Shown here: one piece after another, positions 264-53,085 of the stretch
Layout: each line of letters opens with the position of its first letter
How positions within the stretch are numbered: the first letter of the stretch is position 1
DNA from: Seison nebaliae
Taxonomy: Eukaryota
Direction of reading: 5' to 3'
Length of the DNA: 55,354 bases
Assembly: GCA_023231475.1 (NCBI GenBank)
Contig: JALJEE010001928.1
Span: 1 to 55,354, forward strand
The notes under the pieces: generated by a model
Told to the model about the DNA's origin: nothing
Databases searched by the model: none
What the model saw: the letters and a program-made list of their open reading frames with translations, nothing else
Made by a program: the position numbers and the translations under genes

Positions 264-2443
264 TTATAATTGATCGAACCAATTTTCTATAACGGCAGCA
301 AATTCTAAAGCTAATTGATGACCACTCACTTGTAACATTTTCACGCAATCTTTTAAATAATTTAAATCTGATTTTGTGGATATGACGAATTGAAATAATC
401 CAGCTACTGCTCCCATTTTTCCATCGAAATGATCGATATTCGGTTCCAATTGTTCTAATCTATCGAAAGCTCTTACTGCATAATAGAATTGTCCACTCTA
501 TTTCAAATTTGAAATAAAATTGAGAAATATAATAATGTCTAACTTTATAACAATCATTACCTATGAGTTGGAGAAGTGCAAATGCATGTTTAGTATTCTT
601 TCGTTCTTCATATAATCGCCATGCTTGTTCAGCATCTTTGTCGTAAATATAACATCGAGCCAATCCCAAAGCATATACATAATCTTGTTTAATCGCATTG
701 GAATTGATATCTAAAAAGATTTCTTTAGCTTCCGAAAATTTCTTTGTTGTCAATTTCACTTGAGCATAGTTGTAATTGAACGTGTCATTATCTTTCATGT
801 AGTTTGAGATCGAATCCAAATAAAGTTCACAATTTTTGAAATCTTCTTTTAAGAAACAATAACTGGCCATCGATTGTCGACCAGGTACGGTATCTGTGAA
901 AACGTACAAAATTTTATGGAATTTCCAAAAATCGAAAACTAACCACAATCAGTTTCGGATTCACCAATTGACTGAAAAATATATTCAGCATGTGAAATAT
1001 CTTCCGCCTGAAATAAGATGAAATATTATTTTTAAATTCCAATAAAATTTAAACGAACATTATTATGTTTACTGCCATAAAGATAATATGTGATTCCTTT
1101 TAAAATCATCTCAATGGTTTGTGTTTGTTGAGCATTTTGCATTAATTCGTATGCCTCATCAATTTTATCTTTATTGAACAATATAACCTTGATAGGAAAT
1201 TAGTGAATAAATTTAGCAACCATGTTGTACGTGATATATGGTTGCATTTAATCTTGCTTCTGGTATTTCTTCCAATGCTGAATCGAAAGTTGTAATCGCA
1301 TCTTCTTGTGCTTCATATACCGCAATATTGTGCTTAATCAATGGTTTACCATAAGCTATATCATCGGGCCAAGTATCTTGCAACATGTTCATTTCTTTCA
1401 AAGCTTGTTCTGGTCCGTACAATCGATATTGAACGGCAGCTTTCAAAATACTGGCAGTTAATGAAACATCATTTCTTGGAATGGACGAATTCAATAATTC
1501 CATAGACATCTCATATGAATCGATTTTGTAATAACATAGAGCAATATAAATGTTCAATGCTTTAAAATTCCTAAAGCAAATACGGAAAAAAAGTAAATTA
1601 ATTTCAAACATAATAAAAATAAAAAATCTTCACAATTTTACAAGTTTTTCTTTAATTGTTTTTAAGATTATTAGAATAATGAGAACGAAACTGATAATTT
1701 AATAATAATTTTTTGTAGACATCAATCGCTTCTCTATAATGATATCTCATGTAATGCATGGAACCAAGACATAGTTGATCTTCTGGTTGATCCATCAATT
1801 TCTTGTGGTAACGAAAAAGTTTCTCATCGTCCCAAGTTTTATGTGCACAATGGAATAATACACGTACTTGTAATTGATTAACTCCTGTAACTGTACAGTT
1901 CATATTATTAATAGAATGTATATGATTAAAGTGGAACATCGTTTTGCAGCTGCTTCAGCTTCGGGATACATTCCTTGCATAAAGTAGCAACATGCTAAAT
2001 AAATCAAGACTGGCTCAGATATATCTGTTCTTGATAGTTTATCATAAACCTTTAGAATTATTCACTTATGAGAAATAAAAAAGTTGTTTTTAACTTTTCC
2101 TGCTTCCTCATATTCTCCCAAATGAAATAGAACATAACCGATCCACATGTCCAACTCCCACAACAACTTCTTAGGACTTCTTAAGTTGACCTCCTTTTCC
2201 CTTTGTACCTAGAATTAAGTGTTCGAATGAAAAGTTGAAGAATTTAAAATTGCCCCATCATAAATTAAACTTGCAAAATCATTTTCGCCCCAAGATAATC
2301 TCTTCGATCTACATAATCGAGAAAATCATGTTCATCTTTTTTAGATTGTTTCTTCGACTTTTCCGTCTTTTTACTTTTCAATTTACTCATCAACTATAAA
2401 TAATAAAAGATTAAGAGATTAATTATCACATCATGATAACCAT
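264..2443 (-). CDS. TTC26: Intraflagellar transport protein 56 (TPR protein), 10 exons
   Basis: Spliced translation gives M|LMSKLKSK..DRRDYLGAKMILQ..WIGYVLFHLGEYEEA..LACCYFMQGMYPEAEAAA..LFHCAHKTWDDEKL..EDQLCLGSMHYMRYHYREAIDVYKKLL..ALNIYIALCYYKIDSYEMS..DTVPGRQSMASYCFL..LLQLIGNDCYK..AFDRLEQLEP..GKMGAVAGLFQ, collinear with IFT56 motifs; nine GT-AG introns keep the frame. Confidence 0.95.
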
Positions 2444-3107
2444 GGTTCGGGATTTCTTGTATTGATAAGTGCAATAAGATTAATAAGTAATTATTATAAT
2501 TAATTTTCTTAAAAATACTTTTTGTCATAGAAACTAATTATATGTAATTCATCTATTAGTAACTTGCTAAACAATTAAATAAATTGAATAAAAATTATTA
2601 AAAAATGAAGCTATTTATAATGCATATATTATGACCATTTTTTTACCATCAAATAAAATTAATTGATTATCTTCAATCATTGTCAAGTTTTTCTTATCAG
2701 CATCATTCTGTTATTTTTATTTAAAATTTATTGGAACAGATTAATTGTATATTTATTCGAAGTAATTAAGATATAATTTATTAGAAGTAGAATTTTTATT
2801 TGTAGTTTAATTTTTTTATTGTGCATATAATAATAGAATGATCCAAACAATCGGTCTATGATTAGATAAATGTTTGGTAATTATATCGTTTGGTAAATTG
2901 AAAAATCCTGCTCTACATTCAGCCTCATCATTTTAAACGATTAAGAGAAATGAATCTAGTAAAACGAGATAAAATGGATAAATTTGGTTAATTTGATCTG
3001 AAACACAAATTTATTATAAGCGCAAATTTCTCTTAAGTTTTTCGTAGTATTTTGTATATTAAATAGTAATTTTGAGGTCTTTCGTTAACATTTGAATTTA
3101 ATTATTT

Positions 3108-3596
3108 ATGGGAATAAAGACATTGTTGATTTCCCTTCTTCCCTCAAGATGGAGGAAACCAAAGAAAAAGGATTTCGATTATCTTAATGAAATTCTTGAT
3201 ACTGGACAACAAGGAATGGATTTTGAAGAACTTGACTTAGAAAATGAATTTGCTACCGTAAAAAATTCGAATAGCGCGAATATTATGGATACACAGAAAA
3301 GGAAGCTTTATGTGTTTTATCATTACCTTAAGAATGATGGTAATACTCAAGATGAAAATTTTCCTGACAATTTTTCCGAAGATGAAATCACTGATGGAAT
3401 TATAGTTGGCAAATTAGCTAGATGGATGATTCTAATGAAGAAGAATGGAAAAGAATTCAGTTCAAACAAGTTAAATGTGAATGTCGTTCATGAGGACAAA
3501 ATCGAATTAGTAAATGGTGAAGATCTGGAAGAAAAAATTGCATTTACTTCAAAAGAATTTAATTATTTATGTGACTATCTTAAGAGTTACAACTAG
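3108..3596 (+). CDS. Intronless hypothetical protein, 162 aa, basic N-terminus and acidic body
   Basis: ATG-initiated 162-codon ORF in very AT-rich DNA with protein-like composition; no family recognised. Confidence 0.6.
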   Translation: MGIKTLLISLLPSRWRKPKKKDFDYLNEILDTGQQGMDFEELDLENEFATVKNSNSANIMDTQKRKLYVFYHYLKNDGNTQDENFPDNFSEDEITDGIIVGKLARWMILMKKNGKEFSSNKLNVNVVHEDKIELVNGEDLEEKIAFTSKEFNYLCDYLKSYN

Positions 3597-3859
3597 AATT
3601 ATGAACAGATAAATTATGATAAGGATTAAATATTTTTACACAAGCAGTTTTTTTCCACTGATATACTTATGTAAAACATTCTCATTTACCAGGATATGAT
3701 TCTTTGAATACATTTCACTTCAATATTAATCATCATTATTAATAGATGTTTTAATGGAAAATATTTTGAAAATATATTGAATTTATATCAAATGAATTTA
3801 AAGTTTTATCATAATTGCAAAGATAATTTGGTGTGCAGTTTACCCATTCCGAATTAAAT

Positions 3860-5489
3860 TTATTCGACAATTGAAGGTCTAGTGAAGTCGACATTACTAG
3901 AACTAAATTGATAGTAAGAAAATGTAGAGAGTTTTCTAGTGTCATCCTTAGTTTTACCGACAGTAGGTGTGAGCTTGTCGTCTGCCATATAAATATTGGT
4001 AAGATCTAGAAAAATGTTGAATAAGTCAATTTATGTTAAAAGTGCAAACTAGGTTTCTTTCGGATATAAGCGTATATTGAAAGAACTCCTATTGCTATTA
4101 CTAAAATTACCGAAAATATAATGAAGAGATGATACACTCGTATTAATCGTCCTTTCTCAACTTTCATAAGGGGCATTTTCAATGCTATAAAAATGAGTAT
4201 AGAGAAAGTGATAAGAGAACAAATGACGAACAATTGGAAATGGTGTAAATCGACTCATTTAATCTAGAATTGAGTATTGTACTAAACTTTTGTAGTGGAA
4301 AGATTGCATATTTGGTTGCAGGAGATGTACTTGTCAAAAATTTCCTCAACTTAATTGGTGGTAATACCATTTGATAAGAATAATCGACCAACATAGCATC
4401 GTTTGGTAAGCTCGTTTTGTTTCTTATCAGAACTTTTAGTTCTCTCGGCTTAGTTTCGACAAGGTCAACGTAGGTAACTTTAATAGCTGCATGAAGCTTT
4501 AATTCTAGTTAACAAGCCATTAAAGTGAAAAGCAACTAGTTTTTTAATATCTTCTGATACATTTTGTCGCAAATAATGAATACTTCCATTTTGTTTTATT
4601 GTTAGTACGTCATTCGGTTCATTAAGTTGTTTCAGAGTAATTCTTTTTTTTAACATAAACTTATATTCAAATGACAATACTTAAAAATGAAAGTAAATTA
4701 ACCTTCTTCATCGCTTCATCATCAATAGGATAGTTTTCTGCTTGAGGTTTTTCTGAAACTATCATTGTTCTTTCTGGAAACATGTTTGGTTGTTCTGAAA
4801 CTGCATCTGGTTCGGGCACAATTATTTCTGATGGCTCTGGTATTTTTTCCGATTTTTCTTTCATGGTTTCTATTTGTTCCATAGTAGTTTCTAGATTTCC
4901 TGAAAAGTCGTCTGGTTGTTCTGCAATTCTTTTTGGCGATTTTGAAAATGATTGTTTTCGAAATTTGTTAGGTTGTTCTAGTATTGTGTCCGGATTCTCT
5001 GAAACCGTTTCATGCTGGTTTAAAATTGTTTCAAATTGTTCTAAAATGGTATTAGGATTTTTCGAAACCCTTTTATGTTGGTTCCGAATTATTTCAGGTT
5101 GTCGGGGAATATTGTCCGGATTCTCCGAAGCCGTTTCAAGATGCGGAATTGTGTCTGGGTTCTCCGTAACAGTTTCATGTAGTTTTCGAATTGTTTCAGG
5201 TTGCTTTGGAATTGTGTTTGGGTTCTGCGAAACTGCTTCATGTTGCTTTCGAATTGTTTTAGTTTTTAGTTTTTCTAGTCGTGAAATGGTTTCTGGGTGT
5301 TCTACATTTGTTCCATAGTTTTTAGGAACCTTCTTCCGACTTTTCGAAACGGTTCTCGATTGATCTGTAAATGTTTCCGGTTCTTCCTCAAATGTTTGTT
5401 GTTTAGTAGTGTTATATTCGCCGTTATCTCCCAAATCAGACTTTAAAAAAAGTTTTTGAATTTTGAAAGATAATTTTTTAAACTAACAT
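3860..5489 (-). CDS. Hypothetical single-pass membrane protein with heptad repeats, about 6 exons; 5' end uncertain
   Basis: ORFs 4667-5434, 4480-4677, 4185-4394 and 4036-4233 join in frame through short GTT-AG introns; hydrophobic segment LFIIFSVILVIAIGVLSIYAYI followed by RKK; last exon ends ..RPSIVE-stop at 3860. Confidence 0.7.
4780..5310. repeat. Degenerate 21-nt coding tandem repeat (7-aa units with a 21-aa higher order)
   Basis: Minus-strand units QHEAVSQ/NPNTIPK/QPETIRK/LHETVTE/NPDTIP/HLETASE/NPDNIPR/QPEIIRN/QHKRVSK/NPNTILE/QFETILN/QHETVSE/NPDTILE. Confidence 0.85.
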
Positions 5490-5889
5490 CTGATGAGTTG
5501 CTAAGAGTTGTCCAAGTAAGAAAACACCATTAAGGAAACAAAAGATAGTAAGTTTAATGATATAAAAAATATTCCAATGGAATATAAGTTTAGGGGAATA
5601 ATTTTATTTATGTAACCTGACGAGAACGGAAACGGAATAATTACATAATATAAAGATGTAAAGTACGTATAATGCTATTGGAATAATATTATATTATCTT
5701 TTATTAGAATAAAGGGGGACTTTGATGCTTATAATTTTTCATCGAATTTTCAACTGAATTTCAAAAAATTGAAATAAAAATCGAACTATAAATCAATGAA
5801 AACCAAAATTGTATACATAATGGATAAATAACGAAGAAATAAATTTAGTCAATTGAATTCTGTTTTTTCAATAAATTTCCTTAATTATA

Positions 5890-6805
5890 TTATGTAGGAT
5901 TATTATTATTATTTATTGATTGAATTCTCTTTGGGATAAAATAGAAATGAATGTAAAAAAAATTTCGATCCTCGTCACTGTTGATCAATCGGTGTAATTC
6001 TGCGAGTGATTCCCGATCGATTGGCATAGAATCCATGGGATGATAGGAAAAAATGAAATCTCTAAAATTCTGAAGCCGAATATCATGAGATAACCCGTAG
6101 TATCGAAGTGTATATGAAAATACTGATCGATTATGTAAGAAGTTTGTGTTCAAAATATGAGAAGTGTGGAAGTTAGTTTCGATAATTTTGCTTCCGATAA
6201 GAGTAAAAATTCGACAAGAGAAGAGAATGTGTAGGGGAAGAAGACCGAATGCTGCGAAGAGAAGAGAACGGTTACATCGGTGAAAGCAACATACTAATCT
6301 TCTTATAAGTCGATTGTATGCGTGGTCGGTGGACAGGAATGAACGTTGGGTAATAAAGAAAATCCTTTCCAGAGGGTAAAGAGGCAGAACCAAACTCCTG
6401 AAAATCTGCAAACGTAATTTAAGAGGAGCGAATTTCGTTTTTGGAGAGAAAGAAAGAAATGCTTTGCATAATTTGTGATGAATATGATCTAACGTGTTTG
6501 ATGACCTCGGAAATCGATGGTTCAACCAAGAAAGGTGGTGGAGACTTTGAGAGAAAATCACGATGTCGTCAGCGTAAGCAATGACATGTGGAAACGAATT
6601 GTTTCCTATGCGGATGTCACATGATTCGTTGAGATCACGAAGAACTTCATCGATGACTGGCCCAAAAAACCAGGGACCAAAAATAGTACCTTGACGAACA
6701 CCGGAATTGATAGGAAAAATTTCCCCGAGTCGGTCGCCAATAACGATACTCCCCGTAGATTCGTGGAAGAGATGAAATAGAAAACGATTATATGAGAAAG
6801 AAAAC
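5890..6805 (-). mobile_element. 5'-truncated non-LTR retrotransposon (RT C-terminal part)
   Basis: Minus strand reads ..EIFPINSGVRQGTIFGPWFFGPVIDEVLRDLN..FPHVIAYADDIVIFS.. (GVRQG and YADD motifs) and continues in frame to an (AAT)n run near 5900-5915. Confidence 0.9.
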
Positions 6806-7347: not shown

Positions 7348-10300
7348 ATGAAAATATTTTATTGTTTCTTTTTATTAATTTCATTCGTGGTCAACATTCA
7401 ATTTAATATTCCAAGTTAAAGTACATGACTATTGCTTCTATACTTCTTATTTAGGTAAATCTTTGGCATTTCCTTCTCATCTCTTCAGTAGAAACAATGA
7501 CCACATCTTGTCGTTTCAAATGAGAGGAGATCTGAGCGGAAAATTCGGAACAGATGTGGGAATATACGAATCGCCTCGTGATCAATTGGGCGACGTAATA
7601 TTTCATGTTTGTGTTAAAAGTGTCGACAGTTCGATTAAGTTCTCTCACGTAACCAAAGGATCATCAACGATTGACGCATTTGATTTCATCCTTATACCCG
7701 ACGTTCAAATACCCAACTTAGATGGTAAGTTTGTTTGCTTCAAAATGGTTTTGGGCCGTTTATTCTTTCGATATGTTAAAGATCTTCGTTTAGTTTTTAG
7801 TTGACATTATTCTTTTTCAGGAATACGATTCGATAAATGTTCATTATAAATCATCAATCTCGGGTATGAATAAATTGGAACTAAAAAATATTTTGATTTT
7901 TGATGTAAATATAAATTATCCCCAATTCATTCGATTACCTTATCATGTTAAATGGAAAGAAGTTCACATTTGTTTTTCTAGTTAATAAATGTGTGAAATC
8001 ATCGATCAATGTTCACTAGAATTCTGATACAGAATTTTTCGATGGTGTTTATGCTTATGATCTGGATGAACAAGGAACATCTGCTACAAATCTATTGTTT
8101 GAATGTCAGTTAGAAATCGTATTATAAACTAATGCAAATTTACGAGTATAATAGAATAGCATGTGAAAAAATCCAACTGGAACTGATGGGAAAATATCAG
8201 TATTTCAACTTAAGTATCGACCGTTCTATTGATGTGGTGGGTGTTCGTATTAATTTAGTTGAACCGGTGGATTATGAACAAATCACAACAATGGCGATCC
8301 AAATTGATTCAAGTGTTCGATAATAATTAATTGATTATGAGTATATTAAATATAGGATCAAGGAGATGTTCGATTGGAAGAATATGGACCATTGACAACA
8401 GAATCGTTTATTGTTGTTGAAATAATTGATCAACCCGATCAACCACCAATCTTTCTTAATACTCCTTACAATATCGAATTGAAAGAAACTCAACAAACTT
8501 CTTTAGTTTAATTTTTCGCTAATTCTTGATGATGAAATATTTTAAATTCGTAGATTGGTAAAGTAACCGCGATTGATGGAGATAAAGGTATCAATGCATC
8601 CATCAGATATTCATTTCTCACAACAGCCAAAATCAATACATTGAATAATTTAAATTTTGAAATTTCAGATCTGAATATAATCTTAAGTAGTTAATCTTTT
8701 AGAAGACGGATTTAAAACTTCAATCAACTCATTTTTTAGATACAGAACAATTGGAAGATTACATCGAAATCGATCCAAATACAGGAGAATTATACTTAAC
8801 AAACGAATTGTATAATGACGAAGAATGTTCGGCAGATAATTCCGAATTTTCTATTTTAAAGTTTTTTAGTGATTACGGTAAATATGTGTCTATAGGTATA
8901 CTGGTTAGGGATAATTATTTTCAGAATTGTAAAGATAATTCGATTAAAATCCATTTGAATTGAAAGGCAGAAGAAGGTCAAAATGGATCTTACAATAATT
9001 CTTATGTTACAGTTGTCTTTAAAATGGTATTCGAGAACATGAATATTCCAACATTTGATAAAGATAATTATGAATTTTCCATTGGGAATGATTTAAATGG
9101 AGGAGATCTGTTTCCAATACAGATTATTATAACGGACTGCGATTACGTTTGTTTTGATTTGAATGTGATATGTTTATTAAATCGTTTAGGCCGAATTTGG
9201 TGCATATAGTTTAGAACTCAATACGACGGATATAAAAGTTGAACCAGACAAAGGTGAAAGTCAAACTGCTCTTCGATTATCACTGGTCAATGAAGTGTTT
9301 AATGATTGTCATTTGCATTCGGCACATTATATCGAACTAAAAGTTTGTGAAACGATTATCATTCTAAAAGACTCATAATTCCACAGGTTATTGAATTGTC
9401 TGGTGAAAGAAGAACGACATCTCACGTTCTTCATATTACTATTCTATCTACCAATATGCATATACCAAAATTTTTAAGTGAACCGATAAGAAAGGTAATT
9501 AGTGAAGAGGAACCGGAAGGTTCCATAATAGAAACGATTAAAGTTCCTTTTGCTTTTCCCATTCAATAAAATTTTTCTGAAGATTGAAGATAAGGATTGT
9601 GGAATATTCCAAGAAATAAGAGCGTCAATTAATTCCGTTTCACCATATCGGATACCATTCGATGTTCGGCGACCCATAGAAATGGTAAACAATATTTTGA
9701 CGATCGATTTATTTGTTTCATCAGCAATTAATCGAGATGATAGTTTACAATATAACTTTCAAATAGTCGCGATGGATGGAGGAAACAAATCAGTTATTCT
9801 CTAAATTATATTCCGTAATTCAATTGAATTATTATTAGTCTAATTTGTTTGTCACAATTGATATAAAGAAAGTGAATAAGAATCCTCCATATTTCCTGAA
9901 TACGGAATTATTAAATCATTTAAATTTAAATTGTGATGGATATGATGATACTGATGAAGGATATTTTATTGATATTAATGAAGAGAAAAAAACATTAACA
10001 TCCCAACAAGATATTCAAGTTCCTTTTGACAATTATTAATTTAATTATTATTAATAATCTTTGTAGGTTGGTACAATAGATAACGAAGATGAATTATTTT
10101 TGAAATTTAATTTTGATGATAATTTTCGGATGGTAAATGTTAAAGAAAGTTCAAATACAATTTCTCATCTACCAATTTATGAGATTACTATCCCTATTGA
10201 CTCTTGGGATGATTTCATGGATGAACTTCAGAACTTTGAGTTTTGTCGAAGTGTTCGTTTGGGTATTGGGCGAATATATTTCGATTATGAAATGGTAGTA

Positions 10301-14543: not shown

Positions 14544-14931
14544 ATAATAATTTAATAAAAATTTAAATTTTCTTCAATTATTCTGTCAATTACATTTTTT
14601 GATATCAATATACCTAGTAATCTCAAAGTAAGTGACTATTAAGTTTTAAGGGCCGGATTTAAAAAATATTATTAACTAACTTTAAGTATTTAGGAGCATT
14701 CAAGTTAGTTTTAACGAAATTGACATGGGAAAAAATCGTAACATAATTCAAAAGAACGCGGATTATATGGAGGAGTTTAACAGTTGTAGACTTGTTCAAA
14801 GTAATTTAAAATTGTTATTAATTACGTTAATCAGATTGTCTGAATATTTCTTTTTTTTTCAAATTTGAAGCCAATCAACATTTTGTCCACATTGAATTAT
14901 ATTATTATACAACGGAGAGAATTCAAAACGG

Positions 14932-16616
14932 ATGTCGAACGAAATGAATGATAGTAGTGAGAGCTTGTCAAGTGATGAGAAACATCGAAGGAAATTGAAA
15001 CATAAAGAAAATAAACGTCGAAAGGAACGAAAAGATGAATATTCAATGCAAGAACCAGAGAGCTCTCAGAAAGAAAATGGAAAAAATGAAAGGGAAGATA
15101 CAGTGGAGTATAATTGGAAAATAGAAAACGTGAATGATCTGACACCATTGAAAGAATTTAGTGTTGATGAGAACGTGAAGAATAAAAGAAAAGAAAGATT
15201 TTTTGGTAAAATGTTAAATGGAGAACGGAAGATAATTGATAAGGAATTATCATATTTCAACGTATTCCGATTACATCCAGATGTTAAGATTAAATATGAC
15301 GCTGCTAAAAAATTTGTTACAGAGTCAACTAATAGATTTGAGAATATTCTCAAACAGAAACGTCAACAGAAGGAGCAATTGGCTGAAATAAAGCGGCAAC
15401 AATGTCTAAATTTTATGTGTCGGTTTTTATCGAAAATTTATTTTTTATTTTTTTCTAAATTATTTTTGAAAGAATTTATGTTGGCAGTCTCCATTACGAT
15501 TTGAATGATGTGACAATTCGAATGGCATTCTGTCCTTATGGACATATTACAGATTTGAATCTAGTCATCGATCAACAGCAAAATAAACATCGTGGATATG
15601 GTTTCATTGAATATACGACACCAGACGCCGCCCAATTGGCCATCTCTCAAATGAATAATACGACATTGGGAAAACGAACGATTAAAGTGAGTCGACCAAC
15701 TAATATGCCTCTCGCACATAAAGTTGTTGAATATTTCCAAAAATTGGCAACTGATAATTATACTGTTTATCTCACAAATATCCAACAACCCGCCACAAGA
15801 AAAGAAGTAGAAGATTTAGCTGCTAAACAAGGAAAAATCGTCTCATTTGATATGCCACATGAAGATAATAAACATTTGTTACTCTTTTATTTTGAAAAGA
15901 AAAAATTCAATTAATATTTTAGATCATATTGTTATGTAGAATACGAAGATTCTCGAACAGCCAGTTTAGCTGTTATTAATTTGAATCAAGAACAACTTCA
16001 TGGCGTCTTATTGAGAGCATGTCGTTGTGTTACACCGAAGAATTGGGCCGATTATATCATCATACAAAAAACAGCTCAGGGTCAATTCATTTCGATGAAG
16101 ATGAAGGAAGAGAACTCTGAAACTGAACGAATTGTTCCTCTTCTTCCATTTCAAACGAATCCAAATTCACAGAATTTGAACAGGCAAAAATTGAACAAAA
16201 ATTCATTAACACAATCGGGCAATGTTGGATTACAACCCGATATGTTGACTGATTCAAATTTGTTGAGTGTCACACCAGCACTTCAAGTGATCGTGGGACA
16301 TGATAAAGATCAGGCCGCTATTAATCCACTTACTCGGACGACACTAACAAATCGGGTCCTGTGTTTAGAGAATATGGTGGGCAAAGAAGAATTGGAGAAC
16401 GAGAGATTACCATTGGAAATAAAGATGGAATGTAAGAAATATGGAACTGTACAGAATGTTAAAGTTACATTGACTGAAGATCAAGAGAATGTACGGATTT
16501 TCGTTTTGTTTGCTGATCATTTACAATGTCAAACCGCACAGAAATTACTGCAATCACGATTGTTTGACAAACGAAGAATTTCTGCCTGGGTTTACCCTGA
16601 GAATCCTTTTTGTTGA
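14932..16616 (+). CDS. PUF60: Poly(U)-binding splicing factor PUF60/half pint (RRM-RRM-UHM), 3 exons
   Basis: RQQCLNFMCR|IYVGSLHYDLNDVTIRMAFCPYGHI..KHRGYGFIEYTTPDAAQLAISQMN..LGKRTIKVSRPTNMPLA..; C-terminal VLCLENMV..ECKKYGTV..VRIFVLF..RLFDKR. Introns 15423-15472 and 15878-15922. Confidence 0.93.
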
Positions 16617-19600: not shown

Positions 19601-19788
19601 TTCTAACGAGAAAACTTATTTTGGAAAAAAATATCTATCACTCCTTATCGAATAAATATATATGTAATTGAATAATATGAACATGGATTATTGTGCTGTA
19701 GTGATTTACAACTTTAAATTTCTTTCCATTTTAGAGTTTCTTAAAATTAATTTAAAGAAGAAAAGAACTTGATGATCTATTGACAAAC

Positions 19789-22165
19789 ATGCCTTCTCAT
19801 CGTTCGAAGCAACAATTCCATGGAGAGGAAAGTAGTAAAGGAGGAGATATGAGTCCCCAAGCAGCTGCTTTGTTGGCCAAACAAATGATACAAAGCAAAG
19901 GTAAACATGGCGCTTTCTTAAAGAATGCTCAACCGGGACAATTTTTAGGATCAGAAATTGTTTCCTCTAGTGGCAAAGGACGTAGACAAGGTCATCGTCA
20001 TCATCATTCAGCTCATGCGCAAACCGCTTCCTCATTCCAGAAGGGTTCCAAACGATTCTCCGACGGATCTGAGAATTCGGAAAGTACGGGTTCTTCTGAG
20101 GAGAAGTCACGCAACACTGGAAACACCGGAACAACTTCTGTGACGACCAGTTCAGGCTCATCATCTTCCAGTTCTTCTTCCAGTTCATCTGGTAGTTCAT
20201 CTGGTTCATCCAGTGGACAACGAGCTGCTCGAACTAAATACAGTAAAGCTGCTGCTTATCAACAAATGCAAAGTGGCGGTGCAATGAATTATGGCGGTGC
20301 AGAAATGCATTCAGCTCAAATGATGCAAAACGGTAGTGCTCATGGTCATGGTCACAGTCAAATGGGACAAGAGGATGGAGGTTAATAATATTTATTGAAA
20401 AAATATAAAGGAAAAAATTCGAAGTTCTCTCTTTCTGAATGAAAAAACGGTGTGAGAAAAATGAATTAGCCTTCTCTCTTTTTTCTTTAAATGTCTTTAA
20501 CTGGTTTTTACGAACATTTGTAAGAATATGATTTTGCAGGACGATACGTTACTCGAGAACGTGAATATTATCGACGACCACGTGATGTTATTCGATGTCC
20601 AACACCACCTCCTCAAGTACGACGAGTCGTCGAACGAGTACCAACACCACAAGTTAATTCTTCTATTATCATTATTATGATATTGATTATCGATTTCATT
20701 AATTTCCATTAGGCGGCAATTATTGAGAAAGTTGTTATTCGACCAAAACCTCAACAAATTATTGAGCGAATCATTGAAAAACCATCAACACCCCCACCAA
20801 GAATTGTACGACGTGAAGTTTCCGAAGAGGCTCCACCACCAGTTGTCCGTACTCGGTTTGTAATTTAAATTTAATATATTTAATATATTATTTTACTTCT
20901 TTTAATTCTAATAGTGTTGTCAAAGTGGGAAATGATGGACCAGGTGAACCGTGAGTTTCTTTTTTATATATTCACTTAAACTTCGCTATCCTTATTAATC
21001 CGCTGCTAATATTTTTCTAACCGAATTTCAAAGTTCGCTATACAGTTCCACTCGACCTCAGTCACGTCACGATAATTCTTATGCTCAATATGAGGATGAA
21101 AACGATATGATGAATGAACAAATGGAAAGACAAGAGAATATCGTTTCTCCATCTATGTCCATTTATTCGACAGCGGCAAAAGAATCTTTACAAAGTTATG
21201 GTGATACGCAAATGTTCAACTATGGTATGTCTACAATGCCAATGGCTACACCTCAAAATCATTGTATGTCTTGGATACAACAACCGTTACAAAATCAGAT
21301 GATGATGCAATACCCGCAAGCTATTGCTCAGAATTTTGATCAAAATGCTGTTATGGGAAATTCGATATCATTGAGATCTTCCGTTGATCGACTTATGAGT
21401 CATAATCCAAACACTTATAACATGCCGTCACACATGAATAAGTTTAACAATTTTCCTGATATGAACAATAGTCGATGCCATTCAACTCGTCCACCAGCGA
21501 TCGATGAAGACATTTCTGATCATTTAAGTATTCTTTCAATAGCTGATGTACCTAAAATTCCGAAATGTATTAAAAATAATGAAGATCAAATGATGTCACC
21601 TTCTCAACGAACAGGAACGATTCCATTCCGGAAACCTCATAAACAAAAATTTCGAAAGAATCCCAATCTTCAATATATGCCTTACAGATCGCACCGTCCT
21701 CGATATAACGGTAGAAATGTAACATCACCACAGAAAGTGAGAGAAAATGAAGAAATGAATATGTCAATGTCATTGAATGACAATCATTCGAATTTCAATC
21801 CTTCAAATGGTTTAATTCGAACTTCATCTACAACGACATTATTAGACGCTCAAGCAATGACAATAGACAACATGTCTGATAATTATTCAGAATGGAATGA
21901 AGATTATGGGAAAGTGGATCATATAAATAATGGAACAAATCAATATCCAATGGTGGCATATAATCAACAGGTACAATTGCCGATGCAATCACCGATGCAT
22001 TTTGGTCAACAACATATTCAACAATCGCTCAATCCACCAATGCTTATGTATCCTCAAATGCAATCGTATATGCCAAGAATGCAATATTTCCAAACACCAT
22101 TTTCTTTAAATGCTCAACCTTACAACACGTTCGGGAATCAATATCCTTTGTCCCAAATGTTCTAA
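19789..22165 (+). CDS. Hypothetical low-complexity protein A (Ser/Gly-rich N-terminus, PTPPP core, Met/Gln/Asn-rich C-terminus), 5 exons
   Basis: ORFs 19780-20385 and 21107-22165 join in frame through introns 20381-20539, 20653-20712, 20856-20914 and 20951-21033. Confidence 0.8.
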
Positions 22166-22687
22166 TAATGAACATGTAGAAAAACAGAATGAGGGAGTGT
22201 TGAATGGACCTTTTAAAATGATAAATCTTTTGACAATTATCCCAAATTTCATTCGTGTTTCATGAAAATTGACAAAATAATATTTTCTCGTTGTTGAATT
22301 GTCGATTATTTGCATCAACATGCATCACTAACTTCTTTTTCCGTATTCATAACGTGACAGTGAAGAGATGTAAGAGGAAATGAACAAGATGAGAGAACTT
22401 CTTCGTATTCTCTTATCTTCACCATTTTCGCACTTCTCTTGTTCACCTCTGAATAGAGAATTGTAATTGAATGAATTACACCGATCTCCGTCTCCTTTTC
22501 ACTCCATGCTCACAAGTGTAACATTTGAGATATTATCTATGTCTCGAATTATATCGAATAATATTTTGTAACTTTTATTTTAACAATATTTCCCAAATTG
22601 CTCATACTTATCAACACCTATCTCATTAAATTCTTTTTCACTTAACAATAATTTAAATTTTTACTTTAATTCTACTTAATTTGTTAA

Positions 22688-24323
22688 ATGACTTATCGAA
22701 GAATGCCTCAACCTATGCCACAACCTGACATGATGCCTGAACCTATGCCTGCACCAATGCCCGCTCCTATGCCGGCACCGATGCCTGCTCCAGTTCAGCG
22801 ACCACGACGACGACGTCCTCGACCTGCACCAATGCCAATGCCAATGCCAGCTCCAATGCCAATGCCAGCGCCAATGCCAATGCCAATGCCACAACCGTCT
22901 TTCGAGTCGATGCCAATTCAATCATCTAGTTATGCTGAATTCCCATCCAGCAGTTCGTTTGATGAAGGTTTTGACATGGGAGGTTATGAAGATTTTGGAG
23001 AGCCGATGCAAATGGAACCTATGCAAATGGGACCACCACCACCACCTCCAATGATGCAAGCCCCAATGCCTCCAATGCAACAACAGGAAGATGAATTCGA
23101 ATATGGTTGGCTTCATTTCGGATATGGTCCAGTAGCACAATGTGGACCAGGAGAAGAATTAGCTGGATATATTGTTCCAGTCATCGATCAACCAGGAGGT
23201 GACGATGATTTCCAAGATTATGGATTTAGTTATGAACCAATGTTACCCCCAAGTGAACCGTTACCACAACCTCCACGACCAATTTATGCTCCACCTGCTC
23301 CACGACCATTTGGCCGACCAAAACGACAACGTCGTCCAGATATTCAAATTGAACCTTATCCAGTTCAAATGCCAAGTGGATCATTCTCCGGAGGAGATTA
23401 TGGACCACCACCAATGCCTTCAAGAAGTTATCGACGAGGACCACCACCAATGCCAGCTCCAATGCCAGCACCGATGCCAGGACCAATGTTAGGACCAATG
23501 CCAGGACCAATGCCAGGACCTATGCCAGGACCCATGCCAGGACCTATGCCAGGACCAATGCCAAGACGGTCAGCATCGTTCTCTTCAAGTGGTTATGAAT
23601 ATCGAGGAAAATACCAAATGAATCAACAACAAGCTGAACCAAAATATATCATGAGAGAATATTATATGGGACCGGCACCACCACCTCAATATCGACAGGA
23701 AAGACAACGTCTTCCAACTCCAAGTACCCCAAGTACATTAGAACAAGTTTCGAATTAATTCTTTAAAATAATAGTACACATTTTAAAAAGGTTGTGGTCA
23801 AACCAAAACCACAAGAAATCATCGAGAAAGTTATTTACAAGAAGAATACTCCACCTCCACAGGTGCGCATGAGATATGAACAAGGACCTACACCCGAACC
23901 TGTATACAAAGAAAGGTAATCTTCTACATTAAGTTTTCATTTTAAATATTCTTTTATCTTAGACAACAAAATGTACCACCAGCGCCACATCATTTCAAGA
24001 ACAATCCACCACCTGTCGATTGTTCGGGACGATTCCATGGTAATACTCAAAGTGCGGCAATTATGCAACAACATGGCGGTATGTCGGGTGGTATGTCTGG
24101 AGGTATGTCTGGAGGATATTCTGGCGGTATGTCTGGAGGTATGTCTGGAGGTTATGCTGGTGGTCAATCAGGTGGATTTTCCACATCTAGCCGTCGCATG
24201 AAGAATGGAAGTGGAAGTTTCAGACAAGGAATGGAAGGACAAGATGGTATGTCATATATGACATCACGAAGTGGTCGTTATACTGATTCCCAAATGGGTG
24301 GCATGAATCCAATTATGGAATAA
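22688..24323 (+). CDS. Hypothetical Pro/Met-rich protein B with PTPPP core and GGMS tail, 3 exons
   Basis: ORF 22688-23758 joins ORF 24063-24323 in frame through introns 23747-23790 and 23916-23962; the core aligns with protein A. Confidence 0.82.
22702..22895 (+). repeat. Coding (PMPA)n/(MP)n repeats
   Basis: atgcca/atgcct hexamer arrays encoding PMPAPMPAPMPAP and MPMPMP. Confidence 0.9.
23446..23563 (+). repeat. Coding 12-nt tandem repeat (PGPM)n
   Basis: ccaggaccaatg/ccaggacctatg units. Confidence 0.9.
24075..24165 (+). repeat. Coding 12-nt tandem repeat (GGMS)n
   Basis: ggaggtatgtct-type units encoding GGMSGGMSGGMSGGYSGGMSGGMS. Confidence 0.9.
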
Positions 24324-25296: not shown

Positions 25297-26027
25297 ATGA
25301 AACTTTTCTTAATACCTTTCTTTCTTTTTGTGTCTGTGTGGAGCGATGTGGATATAATGCGTGACTTCTATCTGAGAACCATTCCTCAAACTGTCCATTC
25401 ACGAATATACGGTAATTCACGTAACGCCCATCCATTCCGTGTATATTACGACGATCCATTAATCATGAGTTCTGAAAATGCCAATGCCGGAAAAGGTACA
25501 ATTGGATATAATGATGCTCATTATAATCATTATGGTGTGCTATATAAAAATAGGAATTTGGATAACAATGATGAAGAGGATGATGAATTGACAGATGATG
25601 AAGAAGCAGAACGAGATAGTTTAATATTTGAAATTTATTATTTTTCATCCAAATATAATTCAAACAGATATTTTGGCTCGAGAAAAGAATTGTAATGTTA
25701 TGTTGGCACAATTACTCGCAAGTATGTTCAAAAATCGTCGACGACCGACAAATCAATTACGACGGGATGTTCGACGATTCCGAGATAGATATGATTCGTC
25801 TGGATGTGCAAGTTTTCTTCAAATTCCTTCTACGATAATATGATTATATAAATTTTATGAAAATAGGTTATCAAACAGCTTGCAAAAATTGGAAACGAGA
25901 CTTTAAAACTCTTCGAAATTGGATGAGTGATGATCGACATTTATCTCCCAAACAAAAGAAACAATTCACTTATCGATTGGACTTGTATCGATATTCATTG
26001 GACTCAGAATATTGTGGTAGAGATTAA
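25297..26027 (+). CDS. Hypothetical secreted protein, about 208 aa, 4 Cys, 3 exons
   Basis: Signal peptide MKLFLIPFFLFVSVWS; introns 25619-25667 and 25812-25866 give an open frame ending ..SLDSEYCGRD-stop. Confidence 0.78.
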
Positions 26028-26143
26028 AAGAATTGTTTATAGAGAAAATTTTCAAACCATTTTTGGAAATATAAAGGAAAGCAAATATTCAGGATTTCGA
26101 CTTTGATTCATTTAAATTCTCTTTAAATTTATTTCAAATAAAA

Positions 26144-29945: not shown

Positions 29946-32107
29946 TCAATTTTCTTGATATAGTTGAGAGATGTTGTCAAAGGTTGAATTGTAATATCGG
30001 AGGAAGATAATCGGAGCAATTCCCCACATAATCACATTGCATGAAATATTGAATCCGAGAAACATGAAGAAGACAAGACGATTTAAAATTGTTAAATCTT
30101 CTCTGATGGAATCGATATCTTGAGGAATGCTTGTACCCATTGACGCCACAACTGACGTGTCAATTGAAGGCCAACTTCGCTTGCGATCTTGTGTTGAATC
30201 AAAAGATTTATTCAGAGCACATTGACTTCCTAATTTACTCTTTCTACTTCTGATATCATAGACAGTGGATGATCTATATATATTGGAGAGAAATGTGAAG
30301 AAAAATTTTCTTATAATTTTCTAACTCGATATATTTTTTGGAAGGATGATATTTGTCCATTTTTCTATTTTTCCTCGGTAAGGCGAGAGATAATTCATTT
30401 TTCTGTTCCTTTCATAAATCTAATTAAAATTTAGAGTTATTTAAATTAAACTTCATTCATTTTTTGGAGGTCGTTCTCCGAAATATTTTTCGCGATATAT
30501 TCGACCCAATCCGGTTGCATACCCTCCGATTGTAGCCACACAGTAGCGTATTGGGATGCGGTTTGATTCCGTCGATTAAGAGGACCATCTTCTGGTTCAT
30601 CTGATGAATCCATACGATGATTGGTACTGAAAAAAAAACAGTTATAAACTGTTCAGTTATAAAATGGAAAACTGGTCAAAAATCTTTTTGAGAGGATGTC
30701 CAACGGCATGAATTTTCGAGAAACTTTTAGAAGGATTTGTTGAATTTCTAATTCGATTATATTTCGACATTTCCTTTTTATTCTTATTCCGACTAGTTAA
30801 TTTGGAAGGACGAACAAAACATGAACGCCAAATGAGTAGAATAGTTCGAAAGAATTGAGGTATTCGTTTGTTTTCTTGAAGTTTGTTAAAGTAACTGAAC
30901 CAGACCATAGCACAAATGGAGAATCCCATACATTGGGTTAAATAGATTGATATCCAAGGGACAGATTCACTTTGTGTTGGTAACATTTTACCTAAACTCA
31001 AAGCATACAATGAATATCCGAGCATGATGGAAATGCCTGTGAAGGAGGAAGATATGAGTCAATCATTAATTAAGGAAGAAAAACCCATTTGCATTTCTTG
31101 TTGGAAGGGAATGAAGAATGAAACGAGAGTTAAAGTTGTCAACATTAATGTAGGCAAAACGGAATTATAGATGACATGAAGCGGCTTCCTCCTCACATAA
31201 AGAGAATAATAAATTTCACTGAAACTATAATTCTCGAATTTCCAAGCAGCGTAATATGTCTCCGCTCGTCTTCCTGTCATACCTAGAATGATGGATATTG
31301 ATATTAATCAATTTTCTTCATCAAATAACGAACCGATGATACTCCATTCGGAATTCGGTACAACTTCCGACAAATCGACAATCTCCGTTTTTACCGTATA
31401 GTTTAAGAATTTTGTAGAATGTGACCATGAACCGAACATTAAATCACATTTTTGTTCATCAAACGGAAACCAGTGAATTGTCATGCGACATCTCATTCTC
31501 ATTTTGGCCATTGGTGTCCCCCAAAATACCGTTCCATTATTTTGGACAATTGCATAGAGATATTGAGAGGGTGATAAAAAGCCTCGTTCATCTGCCGTCT
31601 TGTACATGAATGTATCGGGTGTCCATAAATCAGTTGTTGGAATTCGGAGAAAATTTGAATTATAAGTGTCCGTGTCCCAAACTAATCGATTATCTGTCCA
31701 TTTCTGATCGACGAAAGCGTTTATGACAATTACTTGATCCGTTTCAATCATATAAACTATTTGATTCATATTAATATTTAATTCAATCTAAAAATAAGAA
31801 AGAAAGTTATTTGAAAATCAAATCTAATTTTAACATGTACAGTTCCGTAAGGACGTTGATTGGAATCATATCTCGGTTTTGCTATTAGTCTTTTGATCAA
31901 TGCTTCTTCTTGATTGTCGTTCGAGTTTAAATCGGCTTGATTATTCGAATGATAACCGATTGGTCGTTGTTGATTGACAAGAACAATATTTTGATGGAAT
32001 TGTACTTTATCTTTTTGCGATATATTCGAATAAATTTTTGGGTCGTTGATATATGCATAGATGTCCCGAAAGATTACTACTTGGATAAGCAGATTATATA
32101 ACTGCAT
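29946..32107 (-). CDS. Divergent nAChR-like Cys-loop ion channel subunit 1 (non-alpha), 7 coding exons
   Basis: RYDSNQRP..DQKWTDNRLVW..LWTPDTFMY..CRMTIHWFPFDEQKC..FGSWSHS..RRKPL..M1-M3..LPTQSESVPWISIY..M4 ILNRLVFFMF; six introns keep the frame. Confidence 0.92.
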
Positions 32108-38100: not shown

Positions 38101-41100
38101 TATACAAATAACAATATAATTATGTTCCATTGCCTTTCTTTCTCACAATCCAATTCCACTAACAATTCCTTTGTAATACATCGATTTTATTCGTCTTTTA
38201 ATAATAATTTGGAAATATGTGCATTTACAATTCGTTCCAAGAAAGAACCGGCGCAATAACCAACGAATTCCCCTAATACCATTAGAATGAGAAGCAATGT
38301 GTAAGATCGTTGTAAATCCATGTAGGAAATTTGTTTGGAAACTACTTATTCTTCATATGTTGAGTCATCGAATATTTTCCTTCTTAATGATTTTTTCAGA
38401 TACATAATACATTTTATATCCACATAATACTGATTCATATCATCTAACGTAGATTTATTGATTAATAAACATCATTTATTACTAATAACGAATAAAGTAA
38501 TTTGCATATTCTACGTACTACTTTCCAAACGTTATTTACAAAGGATCTATCTTTTCTTCTCCATACAATCCGACCTGAAATAAATGTAAGCGATAAAACG
38601 GAGAAATGAAGTAATTAGGAGGAGAATATGGAATTCATGCAAAAGCTCCTCCCATACAACATCTGTCAGATATCGATTATATTTATGGCAAACGAACAGT
38701 CTACCACAAGAGATGCCAAGAGGATTAAGTGTCTAACTAATCCTTCTTCTTTTCATATTTCATAATATGGAGAGAGCATATATAACCGGTAATCAGTTAT
38801 ATAACTGGAGAAATACGTAACATTGAGTGTACTTTTCCAGCTTATTGAATCGTCGTTGCTCTGTATTCTTACCTGTCTTGTTTCAATCTAAATCTTTCGA
38901 AATGTTCATTTATTAACTGAACTCAAATTCACTATATGCACACTTCTTTCAATTGACCGTTCTTGACACAATCCATGATAATCTGGCTCTTCACAATCGA
39001 AAACTTCTTCAATTCGGATAAGTATCCAATAATTTTCAATTATATAAAATTTATTACAATTACATGAAACTTTTAGATCAATGTACGATTCTATTCAAAA
39101 TTCTCATTAAATATTTTTTCTATTTCTCACTCCATTAACTCTTCCAATGAACATCAATCTCCAGTTTTCAGTTTCTCGTCGATTATTTATACGTATCCGT
39201 CCCACTCCTGTTCTCAATCCGTACTAAATAAAATTATGATGGACATATATAACCTAGTACAACTAGTGAGGTGAGTTAATGTTTGAATATAAGTTTTGAA
39301 CTCTTAATATGTATGAAGTGAATGTTGTACGAAATTGAACAAGAATTGTTCAACACAAAACCAACCAATTGTTTTTATAAATCACTGAAAGGAAAGTTAA
39401 AAATAATTCTTTCGAACAATAAAGTTCACCTGTCGAAAGGTTAGATTGAAATATTATTGTTTTTTTCAGAGAAATATTTCTGTTTCCAATAGTTTCGTTA
39501 AATATTCATCATATTTACATTTTATGCATATGAATAGCGAAAAAATAATGTTCAGGAATGATTTTCGATTGATCATCATTTAAATATGAATTTCCATTTA
39601 ATCAATAAGTCGATGTAATCAATGACATAATGTTTCGTTGTTAGTTAAATTGATCTTTTAACTAAGAATCAGTCAACTTCATGAAAATTCAGGAGATAGC
39701 ATTAACAACGCAAAATGAAGGGCTCTCATCATATTTGTGAATGTCGAGTTTCAGTCTACACTGACAGTAAAGTTATTTACTCAACCTGGTTCGTTTTTGC
39801 TTCTCACGCTTAAAGTTACTATAAGAAGTCTAGCGCAAGTAATAAAGTCCTACATTTAAGAGATGATTAATTATAATTATTGACCTTTTTAATGAAGTGT
39901 TGTTTCTATTACGCACAGGCGCCTACAATAATATAGTGCGTCAAATGAAGCATCAACCATATTATTCTGATTTATGTGTGCACGTTCATATTTACAGGAC
40001 ACATGAAACATTATTATACAAGACAAAAGTATAAGATACACATATCATAGCCAAATGTGTTTCTCGAATCAAATTCTGTAGGAAAGCAAGCTTAAATGTG
40101 AACTGCATAATTCATTAAGTGAGATATTTATTTTTATTATTTACCGTTTAAGTTCATTATTCATGTTCGAATATATTATTGTTTATGTAATGTGATTCAG
40201 TTGTGATCATTGTCTGAAAGAATAAGACATGACTTTTGAGGAATTGTAAGATTCCTCAATAATTTCCTAGTTGAAAATTAAATTTTCAATTTTTAATTGC
40301 ATATATATATTCTACAAATTAATTTAGATTAATTACTATTTTTATTTTGTTTTCTAGCGCTTATACGAAACTACCTTCTCTCCAGGGTCTACATTAATCT
40401 ATATTATTTAATGTTCAATCTGTAACATTTGCTAATGGTAATCCCTTTTAATAATACTGATAGTCACAATATTCGATAGCATAATAATTCGATATTCTCC
40501 ACCGTCGAACGAATCCATTCATCAAATAACTTGTTTTCACGTTCATATCAATGACTGAGAGAAATGCAACTAAGACTACTAATTAGCACCATAAATGTTC
40601 GAAATATTCTCTAATAATCTGGCAAATTTTACTGGTGATTATTAATCATTAAGCAGTACATTTCTCGTACATGCAGAAGAATGTACGAGAAATGAGAAAA
40701 TTTAAAGATTTAGGAAATTCGATTTTTTATTCTTCTCGAAAATTTGCAGTTAGTTTCTTCCGAATTTTTAATAAGGGAAATTCTTACTAGTTAGTCACAA
40801 AAGGACGTAGTTGAATTACTAAAAGAATGTCTAGATTTATAATTTTAAAATTGGATATAATAATATTTGAGTAAATGGAGTGAAAAGTTTTATTTGTCAT
40901 TCTCCAACTTCTTTCAACAGTAGTTTTGTGAAATAGGAAGAATTGTTAATAGCATATTGTGCATGTAAATCAGAATTAAGAAAGAAAGTTATCGTAAATG
41001 AAAGATATGAAAAAGTATGGAAGTCTTATTTCAAAATTTGCAATTAGCTTTTGTTTCGTTCATAAAATGAATATGTTAGGACTCTCTACCTATCTTTATT

Positions 41101-50549: not shown

Positions 50550-50750
50550 AGAGAAGAAACTAACGAGAAAATTACATTGTTAAGATTATTAATTTATCAC
50601 GTCTTTTTTTGTGAATATGAAAAAAGAGAAATGAAAATTACTACTTCTGATATGTTTCCATGTTTTGTGGAAGAAAAACGATTTTGAAAAAAAAAACATT
50701 TAATTTATTTTTGTCTAATATCTACTCCCGTTCCATTATCGATGTTAACA

Positions 50751-53085
50751 TTATTCGGTTTGGGGGAAATTTATTCCAAATTTCGATTCTAACGAAGCAA
50801 ATGTTGCCGGTGCCAATCGATAGGAACCGATGTGATCATGATTCGGAGAAGAAATTTGTGTTTGTGTCATTAGATCATGTTCTTTTTGAGTTCCTGATAA
50901 TGGTCTTCCTCCAAAATCGACATTGAATGTTCTTTGGAGAATTTCGTAAGTGAATAAAGTGACGGCAAATTGTGGAGATGAACGGAAGACACGAGCCACC
51001 GTTCCTTTCCATAAGGCAGCGAAACCTTCTTGTCGAATAATCTTTTTTGTTGCATCAATTACTCCATCATATTTTGTTTGTCCTTGTCGAGCAACTACCT
51101 GCAATCTAGTTTTGATGACATCAGCTGGTGTTACCAATGAAGCAGCTGGCATACCAGCAATTGCACCTGCAACTAATAAGGAAAAAGGAGAATTTTTCCC
51201 TTCGTCATCTGCTAAAATTTGTTTGGTATGAGCATATGCAGGAAAATAGATAGCACTAAATGGAATATCTCTGAGGAAGCACGCTTTCGCTCCTTTGTAC
51301 AAACCACGAAATCCGAGATCCTTCACTACATTGAGAGCACTAGGACGTTGAACGGTTGCAATCTCTCCCGCAACTTGTAGACGAATTTTGACAATTTCCA
51401 AAGGATTTGTGAAAATAACTTGAGAGAAACCAGCACATCCACCTGAAACCACTTCCGATAATAGAGGAATACTTCCATCTTTCTTATTTCGTAAATAATC
51501 GCGACAGAAATCGTTTGTTGTCAATTTAATAGCTTTCTCTGGTGCTACACCAATGATTTGAGGAAGAAGACCACGATAAAGACCGAAAATTCCCTCATAT
51601 TTCAATACCTTAGAAAAAAGAAATTATTGAAAAAAATGGAAAGATACTAAAGAAACTTTCTTGAAACAATCCATCGAATTTCTGTACATAACTTCTCCAA
51701 TGAAAGATCGCTGATTTTGCATCCGCGTCTTAACTAAATCAATCGGATAAACAGCTGTTGCACCACAAGCACCGGCAATCGAGCCCAAAACGAACCTGTA
51801 GACACTTTCACTAGCTTTCTGCCAATATGTTTGATGATGTTGTTGTTGTTGTTGTTGTTCGAAATGTCGTCTTGCTGATTTGCGGAATGGCATATCATCC
51901 TCCGTCAATGGAGTAATTGCTCGAATATCAGATAAATTTAATGTAGTTTGACTGTTACTATGTGGTGGAGTGATTACTGTTCCTGATGATGTTGTTATTG
52001 TACCTGTTCCACTTGATGAGGATGATGATGATGATGAAATAGTTGAATTTCCTGTTCGACGTAGTTGTGCAATGCGAAAGAGTATATCAATTTGTAGAGG
52101 AGAAATTTGAGGAAATTGCAAAGCACAAGAAAGAAAATCATCTTTCTTTATCGAATAATCGTCAATTCCTGAAAAGTTCTCAGATTTGAATGAACGTTCG
52201 AAAATTCTCCTTAGTAATTCTGTATTCCGTAAGAGTGAAATAAGAGAGAAATACCAAACGAATGATACTTGATCATCTTCATCTTTTCCATCAGTGGGAC
52301 AATTCAATTCTGTCAAATTCTCACTCAACCAATCACTCATCAAATGTGGTTGTGATTTAATCAAGAGATCATGCAACTGTTCACTACTGATCGAATAAGA
52401 CGTGTTGTCCAATTGACGATTCTCTAACAATACTCTACGAAATGCTTGAATTGAATGTTCTTCATGTAAATCTACTAATAATTGAGTAAATCCTTTATAT
52501 CTCAATCTTCTCAAATTATTTCCCTCACCAAAATGTAAATGGACAAATTCCGATGAGAAATTGAATGGATATAATGAATGTAGATTAGTATGAGATAGAA
52601 CTCTCTTGAATTCCTCTATTTCAAATGACAGTTATGACACAATAAAAGATAAATGAAGGAACCGAATGAAATTGATTGAGATCGATCGATATCAAATAAA
52701 CGGAAGGCAATTTCAAAGATTGCATCTGGTCGAGATAAGAGTTGTTCGAAATTCTTAAATTCATCAAATGAAATATATCCATCCTCATTACAATTGACAG
52801 TTCGACTGAGAATTTTCAATGTTTGTCGATTGATCTTTTTGTCTTCTCCGTATTGCACAACGCCCAGAAAACGATTGAAGAAATCCTCGACATTTATCAT
52901 CCAATCATCATTCTCATCTTGGTATGTTGAATACTGGACAGAAATATCATTAAAGGAATTGAAGGAAGAGAAAAAACTTTTAAAAAAATTGTTCGAAGTC
53001 TTTCGATATCTTCCTCATTCTCGTAATCGATTCGTGTTAGAATGTTAGACACATCGTCAGTAGAAGCTGTTTCCGTTTCGCCCAT
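50751..53085 (-). CDS. SLC25A12: Calcium-binding mitochondrial aspartate/glutamate carrier (aralar/citrin, SLC25A12/13 family), 4 exons
   Basis: EF-hand region ([26 protein letters not shown]) then carrier domain [90 protein letters not shown]. Confidence 0.96.

Follow-up and report, generated by a model that had tools for sequence, protein, structure and literature searches.

Introns beginning with GTT predominate in a 55-kb window of the genome of the rotifer Seison nebaliae

The closest described counterpart of the introns discussed here is found in Entamoeba, where GUUUGN opens 96.9-98.5% of introns, U1 small nuclear RNA (snRNA) carries ACAAAC, the ACAGA box of U6 is unchanged and U6 can pair with the +3U of the donor (5' splice site; Roy and Bowser, 10.1101/2022.06.08.495308). 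According to the same source, the few donor transformations known come mostly from protists and fungi with few introns, and amoebozoans are the only group with a reported compensating U1. In general, U1 pairs with positions -3 to +6, after which the ACAGA box of U6 takes over the intron side and loop 1 of U5 the exon side; two classes of U2-type donor are distinguished in animals, AG//GU (the U5 loop 1 class) and //GURAG (the U6 class) (PMC11732430). In Caenorhabditis elegans, 44% are //GURAG and 32% AG//GU (Shen et al., 2024, PMC11347140). Here we describe the donors of 80 introns in a contig of 55,354 nucleotides (JALJEE010001928.1, positions 1 to 55,354, assembly GCA_023231475.1), hereafter the window, from Seison nebaliae, a small seisonid rotifer (Rotifera) that lives on crustaceans. 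Almost all of them begin with GTT, and we consider it highly probable that the donor rule has truly changed in this animal, to R|GTT. The intron placements rest on DNA, reading frame and protein homology in this one 55-kb window.

A change of this kind is already known, because Entamoeba combines a near-universal +3U with a compensating U1. What differs from Entamoeba is the setting in an intron-rich animal, a core of three letters beside which +4 and +6 are free, and the loss of -1G. In the literature searched (subscription papers and figures lay outside the search), no donor consensus is described for Seison or other rotifers, and no comparable animal case was found. A term search of the available parts of the S. 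nebaliae genome paper (PMC8351084), both supplements included, returned no splice-site analysis, and the available parts of PMC10125929 (with its supplement), PMC10639083 and PMC3033335 contain nothing on a rotifer donor consensus. The co-evolution of splice signals with the spliceosome is still poorly understood. If the finding is true, near-uniform GTT in an intron-rich animal implies that a donor switch can spread through an entire genome whose genes each carry many introns. For annotation it means that software for gene finding or splice prediction, if trained on GTRAG, will put donors of this lineage in the wrong place.

The donor signal and its surroundings

The count comprises 80 introns in 11 genes, three of which were taken from deposited S. 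nebaliae proteins, mapped letter for letter onto the DNA with no splice motif assumed, and eight of which were modelled by frame. GT...AG ends are present in all 80, and 77 are needed by the frame or by a stop codon. The donor trimer is GTT in 78 cases, GTA in one (23916) and GTG in one (20951), in agreement with the original prediction that at least 75 of about 80 introns begin with GTT. Its narrower claim, that six conserved genes use GTT exclusively, also held, with 41 of 41 introns (TTC26 9, PUF60 2, VPS52 13, channel-1 6, TRAM 8, aralar 3). GTT accounts for 2093 of 5046 GTN trimers (41.5%) on both strands of the window, for 46.9% in intron interiors and for 37.9% in coding sequence; the binomial probability of at least 78 GTT donors among 80 at a rate of 0.415 is 1.8e-27. 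Composition alone thus favours GTT over GTA by about 1.7-2 to 1, far below 78 to 1. It had been argued that AT-richness by itself should favour A as much as T. This expectation is wrong for the local composition; the conclusion drawn from it stands, since AT-rich introns of 31-49 nt in other eukaryotes keep GTA.

In the mapped proteins, all 47 junctions placed by script (8 in TTC26, 26 in the cadherin gene and 13 in VPS52) are GTT, and each allows one GT-AG placement only. The one-codon first exon of TTC26 gives a further GTT donor, ATG|GTTATC, and the nine TTC26 donor hexamers listed originally were recovered exactly on re-mapping. The three deposited proteins (SNEBB_006666, SNEBB_006669 and SNEBB_006674) are single-member clusters known from this contig only, without a transcript-derived copy. 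Left out of the count were a ninth TRAM intron (48584), as the frame reaches the KKSL-stop earlier, the first channel-1 intron (32240), which lacks an upstream coding exon, an initial intron of gene D that could not be placed, and all introns that may lie in untranslated regions (UTRs).

The introns are short (median 48 nt; 76 of 80 within 40-63 nt), their interiors are 80% AT in a window of 30% GC, and they occur at 3.6 per kb of coding sequence in the modelled genes. On the exon side, position -1 has A44 G20 T14 C2 against phase-expected counts of 28/14/25/13 (n=80), position -2 has A in 43 cases against 29 expected, and AG occupies -2/-1 in 6 of 80. A purine stands at +3 in 2 of 80, and the donors match the GTRAGT-type consensus complementary to U1 at a mean of 4.21 of 9 positions; one donor is GTRAG, and neither -1G nor +5G is present in 45 of 80. 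The first TTC26 donor was omitted from decoy comparisons, leaving 77 donors here and 79 in the U1 comparison below. Among the 77 GTT donors, +4, +6 and +7 follow the intron background; relative to intron interiors, T is avoided at +5 (11, p 2e-9), and G (19, p 9e-6) and C (19, p 0.002) are enriched, the G being weak. The assertion that +4 to +6 are nearly free is accordingly right for +4 and +6 and wrong for +5; the estimate of +5G in about a quarter of donors fits 20 of 80. Acceptors follow HAG (T43, A20, C17 and G0 at -3). A branch point gave no positional peak for CTAA, TAA or TRA, and T is slightly in excess from -10 to -5. The U12-type donor RTATCCTT occurs in 0 of 80. These are short GT-AG introns, and they are not U12-type, Introner-like or shifted-register.

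Exons were examined for the same words. GTRAG is not depleted in modelled exons (14 observed vs 16.7 expected), and a canonical-looking aaa|GTGAGT at 15687 sits unused within the RRM exon of the PUF60-like gene. On the exon sense strand RGTT occurs 147 times vs 182 expected (z -3.9), with z +0.8 on the antisense strand; this deficit is suggestive without being specific, and codon-pair bias can account for it, because RGTT ranks just 7th among the 64 R+NNN words. The near-invariant +3T, the disappearance of the -1G preference and the non-use of GTRAG sites in modelled exons support the claim that donor recognition has been re-specified.

The original prediction had named three exceptions, and these fared differently. 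The aag|GTAATC at 23916 is probably a genuine GTA donor, because the frame otherwise stops and the intron has a typical length of 47 nt; in gene A, tcg|GTTTGT stands at the paralogous position. The acc|GTGAGT donor at 20951 is doubtful. It is not required, because a GTT donor further upstream, at 20856, can be joined to 21033 or 21045 with the frame kept, a route that reaches the long last exon of gene A, and gene A may have alternative last exons that use GTT only, via 20856. Cadherin intron 1 is no exception, having GTT both in the deposited model (7415) and in the output of the predictor described below (7364). A different cadherin junction, near 7725-7820, has three competing in-frame placements, a perfect atg|GTAAGT at 7725 (76-nt intron) vs GTT donors at 7748 and 7775. 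Three more cadherin junctions are ambiguous, and the placement of VPS52 intron 12 (26540-26490) is uncertain.

Tests of intron placement

Bias in the models was addressed with a predictor that leaves one gene out at a time, has start and stop fixed, and uses a donor term that ends at GT; for the acceptor, the length and the composition it was trained on the models of the other genes from the same analysis. It proposed 84 introns, with 76 GTT, 4 GTA, 2 GTC and 2 GTG donors, and recovered 72 of the 80 model donors. Mismatches fall mostly in the hydrophobic TRAM exons and in the cadherin gene, where agreement is 5 of 8 and 22 of 26 donors, respectively. For 51 of 80 introns there is no frame-keeping GTA or GTG donor within 30 nt. 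In a homology-only test, all frame-keeping GT/GC-AG alternatives were scored against homologues of other species; GTT was the best of the GT donors in 9 of 9 TTC26 introns, and the GTT donor was chosen in 3 of 3 aralar introns.

As a control, the homology-only method was applied to eukaryote loci of IFT56 (the TTC26 product) in metagenomes. From 311 loci 80 were kept, mostly intronless, and 18 junctions in 17 loci were scored; all 18 are GTA, and several of these introns are AT-rich and 31-49 nt long. The junctions are not independent, because 15 of 18 represent one intron position common to ciliate-like loci, and the control for this reason serves chiefly to validate the method and less as a survey. 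No locus in this metagenome scan was assigned to a rotifer, and a scan of viral contigs with an aralar query gave no match. At the level of the DNA, long contigs from three sequencing runs agree over 14600-32106 with zero differences. This agreement counts only against base errors at donors, because the assembly may itself have been built from these runs. Over 14600-32300 the DNA contigs from the runs show no intron-skipping joint, a result that is silent on expression.

Candidate routes of donor recognition

The mechanism that we tentatively prefer is an altered U1 RNA with A opposite intron +3 in an otherwise ordinary major (U2-type) spliceosome. Short GT-AG introns starting purine|GTT would be cut by this spliceosome, and U1 is predicted to have A in place of the pseudouridine at its position 6, opposite +3. 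The introns may be recognised by definition across their short length, with the donor read chiefly over -2 to +3. The acceptance of A and G but not C at -1 would be accounted for by pairing to a uridine, either in U5 loop 1 or as a U at U1 position 9. If the U6 ACAGA box is unchanged, its G could form a wobble pair with +3U. A leftover of the old GTRAGT pairing, in normal register, may explain the weak +5G. A changed U1 is favoured because Entamoeba pairs its near-universal +3U with an altered U1. The canonical invertebrate U1 end separates 79 donors poorly from 1041 decoy GTs, with an area under the receiver operating characteristic curve (AUC) of 0.64.

Searches for snRNA genes were made in several collections. 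An Rfam scan of the window gave no snRNA, and a U1 pattern scan of viral contigs gave none. The same pattern in prokaryote assemblies found 10 loci, 5 of which are stray animal-type U1, all with a canonical 5' end and none from Seison. As a side observation, these animal-type U1 snRNA genes lie on short contigs of five prokaryote assemblies and represent host contamination.

Several points weigh against the GTT rule or the altered U1 and are gathered here. For TTC26 intron 2 a GC donor is marginally the best overall in the homology-only test, for VPS52 intron 12 one distant homologue favours either GC or GTA as the donor, and 8 of the 84 donors from the predictor are not GTT. The rise of the AUC to 0.79 with A at U1 position 6 is a circular gain that amounts to a prediction only. 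One invariant base beside free +4 and +6 resembles a tight pocket more than a graded U1 helix. The likely GTA donor at 23916, aag|GTAATC, suits a canonical U1 well. Canonical U1 is kept in most lineages with atypical donors, among them yeasts, Giardia, Trichomonas, Micromonas and Thecamonas (10.1101/2022.06.08.495308).

Some of these points fit an alternative that we regard as a serious possibility and the main rival, in which U1 is canonical and +3U is set later or by protein, either at the catalytic centre by the U6 ACAGA box and PRP8, through a wobble with the U6 G or a changed base at that place, or by an altered U1C, LUC7 or SNRNP27. Most of the selection would then fall to intron length and AT content. 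U6 and PRP8 touch donor positions +2 and +3. Only +1 to +3 are nearly invariant, while +4 and +6 do not differ from background, and the GTA donor at 23916, which has strong exon-side pairing, is apparently still used. According to Parker et al. (2025, PMC11732430), commitment to a 5' splice site is made at its transfer to U5 and U6, and the use of donor classes is altered by LUC7, SNRNP27K and METTL16. To this can be added the retention of canonical U1 as the rule among other lineages with atypical donors; yet U1 did change in the one published lineage with near-universal +3U (10.1101/2022.06.08.495308). Moreover, positions +4 to +6 ought to be constant under a strong U6 helix but carry little signal here (+5G in 20 of 80), and undepleted exonic GTRAG (14 vs 16.7) would be odd if these words were engaged by canonical U1, although this is a weak test. 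A further reading, which we consider rather unlikely, is a genome-wide recoding in which GTT, nearly invariant as three letters, is read by a changed U6/PRP8 pocket and not by extended U1 pairing; tens of thousands of ancestral introns would have been converted at +3, with -1G and +4 to +6 released.

The remaining explanations concern the nature of the introns or of the models. Roca and Krainer reportedly described shifted or bulged U1 registers at atypical human GUU donors, a rare class in which the consensus is displaced by one base. Such human donors begin with GUU too, whereas in Seison GTT is the rule and there is no displaced consensus. Pairing of GTT-AAGT to canonical U1 one base off register, or with a bulge, is very improbable in our view: the mean number of consensus matches differs little between registers, being 4.21 in the normal one, 4.03 with the +1 shift and 4.38 with the +3 bulge, but a shift predicts +6G, which is found in 5 of 80 donors, as in the background, and the residual G lies at +5, in the normal register. 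We give equally little credence to a recent wave of Introner-like insertions with a common GTT end. A common end would make +3 uniform; however, the intron interiors are no more similar than shuffles (best pair 38, shuffled maxima 31-41), 62 of 80 junctions have direct repeats of 0-1 nt, and the paralogues A and B have two common intron positions with differing donors. That the models are biased to GTT, or reflect AT-rich drift, while the true donors are ordinary appears improbable as well, if slightly less so. In its favour, no other GTN trimer is as common as GTT (41.5%), and GTA, GTG or GC options exist at cadherin 7725 (atg|GTAAGT), at TRAM 49067 and in VPS52 intron 12. An artefact is nevertheless hard to reconcile with the 51 introns that have no GTA or GTG option nearby, with the GTT donors that homology-only and +3-blind tests still yield, with the GTA of AT-rich short introns in other eukaryotes, or with the identity of the contigs from three runs over 14600-32106.

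Genes of the window and comparison with known systems

TTC26/IFT56 (SNEBB_006666; 264..2443, minus strand), subject of the homology-only donor test, maps exactly from deposited protein P0121. Its nine GTT introns lie at 2440-2394, 2270-2209, 2094-2050, 1937-1891, 1691-1571, 1220-1169, 1058-1008, 943-894 and 543-498. A probable single-exon gene of about 160 codons without a Pfam match follows at 3102-3593 (plus strand). Gene D (3860..5529, minus strand), whose 5' end was not found, has five GTT introns placed by frame, and two of its exons are without a Pfam match. A LINE-like (long interspersed nuclear element) reverse transcriptase fragment with an RVT_1 match is situated at 5893-6804 (minus strand); 54065-54577 (plus strand; no Pfam match) and about 54870-54960 (minus strand) are LINE-like by their resemblance, by eye, to this fragment. 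The cadherin gene (SNEBB_006669; 7348..14543, plus strand; Pfam Cadherin) has 26 GTT introns in the deposited model, P0151, which maps exactly. The RRM gene at 14932..16616 (plus strand; RRM_1), with introns at 15423-15472 (GTTTTT) and 15878-15922 (GTTACT), is an open frame once spliced. It is presumably PUF60, the name given in the original prediction, which agrees with its motifs.

Two adjacent Pro/Met-rich genes without a Pfam match follow on the plus strand. Gene A (19789..22165) has three GTT introns plus the doubtful GTGAGT at 20951, and gene B (22688..24323) has introns at 23747-23790 (GTTTCG) and 23916-23962 (aag|GTAATC). Gene B is a paralogue of gene A in one exon, with 46% identity; this common VxPKPQxIIExxxxKxxTPPP exon has both flanking intron positions shared. 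Upstream of gene A, at 19494-19734 (plus strand), a GGTAAGTTTTC site and a strong TTTTAG acceptor near 19734 may mark an intron of the 5' UTR; the site offers a GTA donor, plus an AA|GTT donor four bases later. Gene C (25297..26027, plus strand) has two introns, both GTT and based on frame. VPS52 (SNEBB_006674; 26144..29071, minus strand; Pfam Vps52, no PDB match) has 13 GTT introns in its deposited model, P0152, likewise an exact map. Just upstream of it, at 29290-29357, is a repeat of about 70 nt with a read depth of 10-20x its flanks and many loose ends, a dispersed high-copy element. Low-depth contigs about 10% divergent at 22374-22507, 24425-24651, 26351-26462 and 29979-30009 represent paralogues or a co-sampled relative.

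The Cys-loop ligand-gated channel gene channel-1 (29946..32107, minus strand; Neur_chan_LBD) has six GTT introns. Its paralogue at 43830-47399 (plus strand; Neur_chan_LBD), a second Cys-loop channel, is an intronless open reading frame of 1190 codons, which may have arisen as a retrocopy or by loss of introns. The 11-kb gap between the channel genes, 32200-43800, has no convincing coding exons, which is unusual in this gene-dense contig. A hydrophobic protein ending in ...KKSL is encoded at 48576..50069 (minus strand) with eight GTT introns; it is presumably TRAM-like, as the name in the original prediction has it, and the one scanned exon is without a Pfam match. The aralar/SLC25A12-13 gene (50751..53085, minus strand), placed by homologues, has GTT introns at 52977-52934, 52662-52616 and 51656-51609, and the homologue alignment is free of gaps over all three junctions. 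The first two presumably match exon borders of vertebrate SLC25A13.

Compared with the animal U2-type classes, the Seison introns are alike in their GT-AG ends, short length, purine at -1, A-rich -2 and residual +5G. The donors fit neither animal class, because 45 of 80 lack both -1G and +5G. With Entamoeba and its GUUUGU(U) donor, Seison shares a near-universal +3U (78 of 80 GTT), GT-AG introns and an AT-rich genome. Entamoeba is an intron-poor amoeba in which +4U, +5G, +6U and +7U are fixed, whereas in the intron-rich animal Seison +4 and +6 do not depart from background. Just 3 of 80 Seison donors read GTTTGT, and at -1 Seison has A over G, unlike Entamoeba. In Entamoeba U1 has co-evolved with the donor; in Seison the corresponding change of U1 is predicted only.

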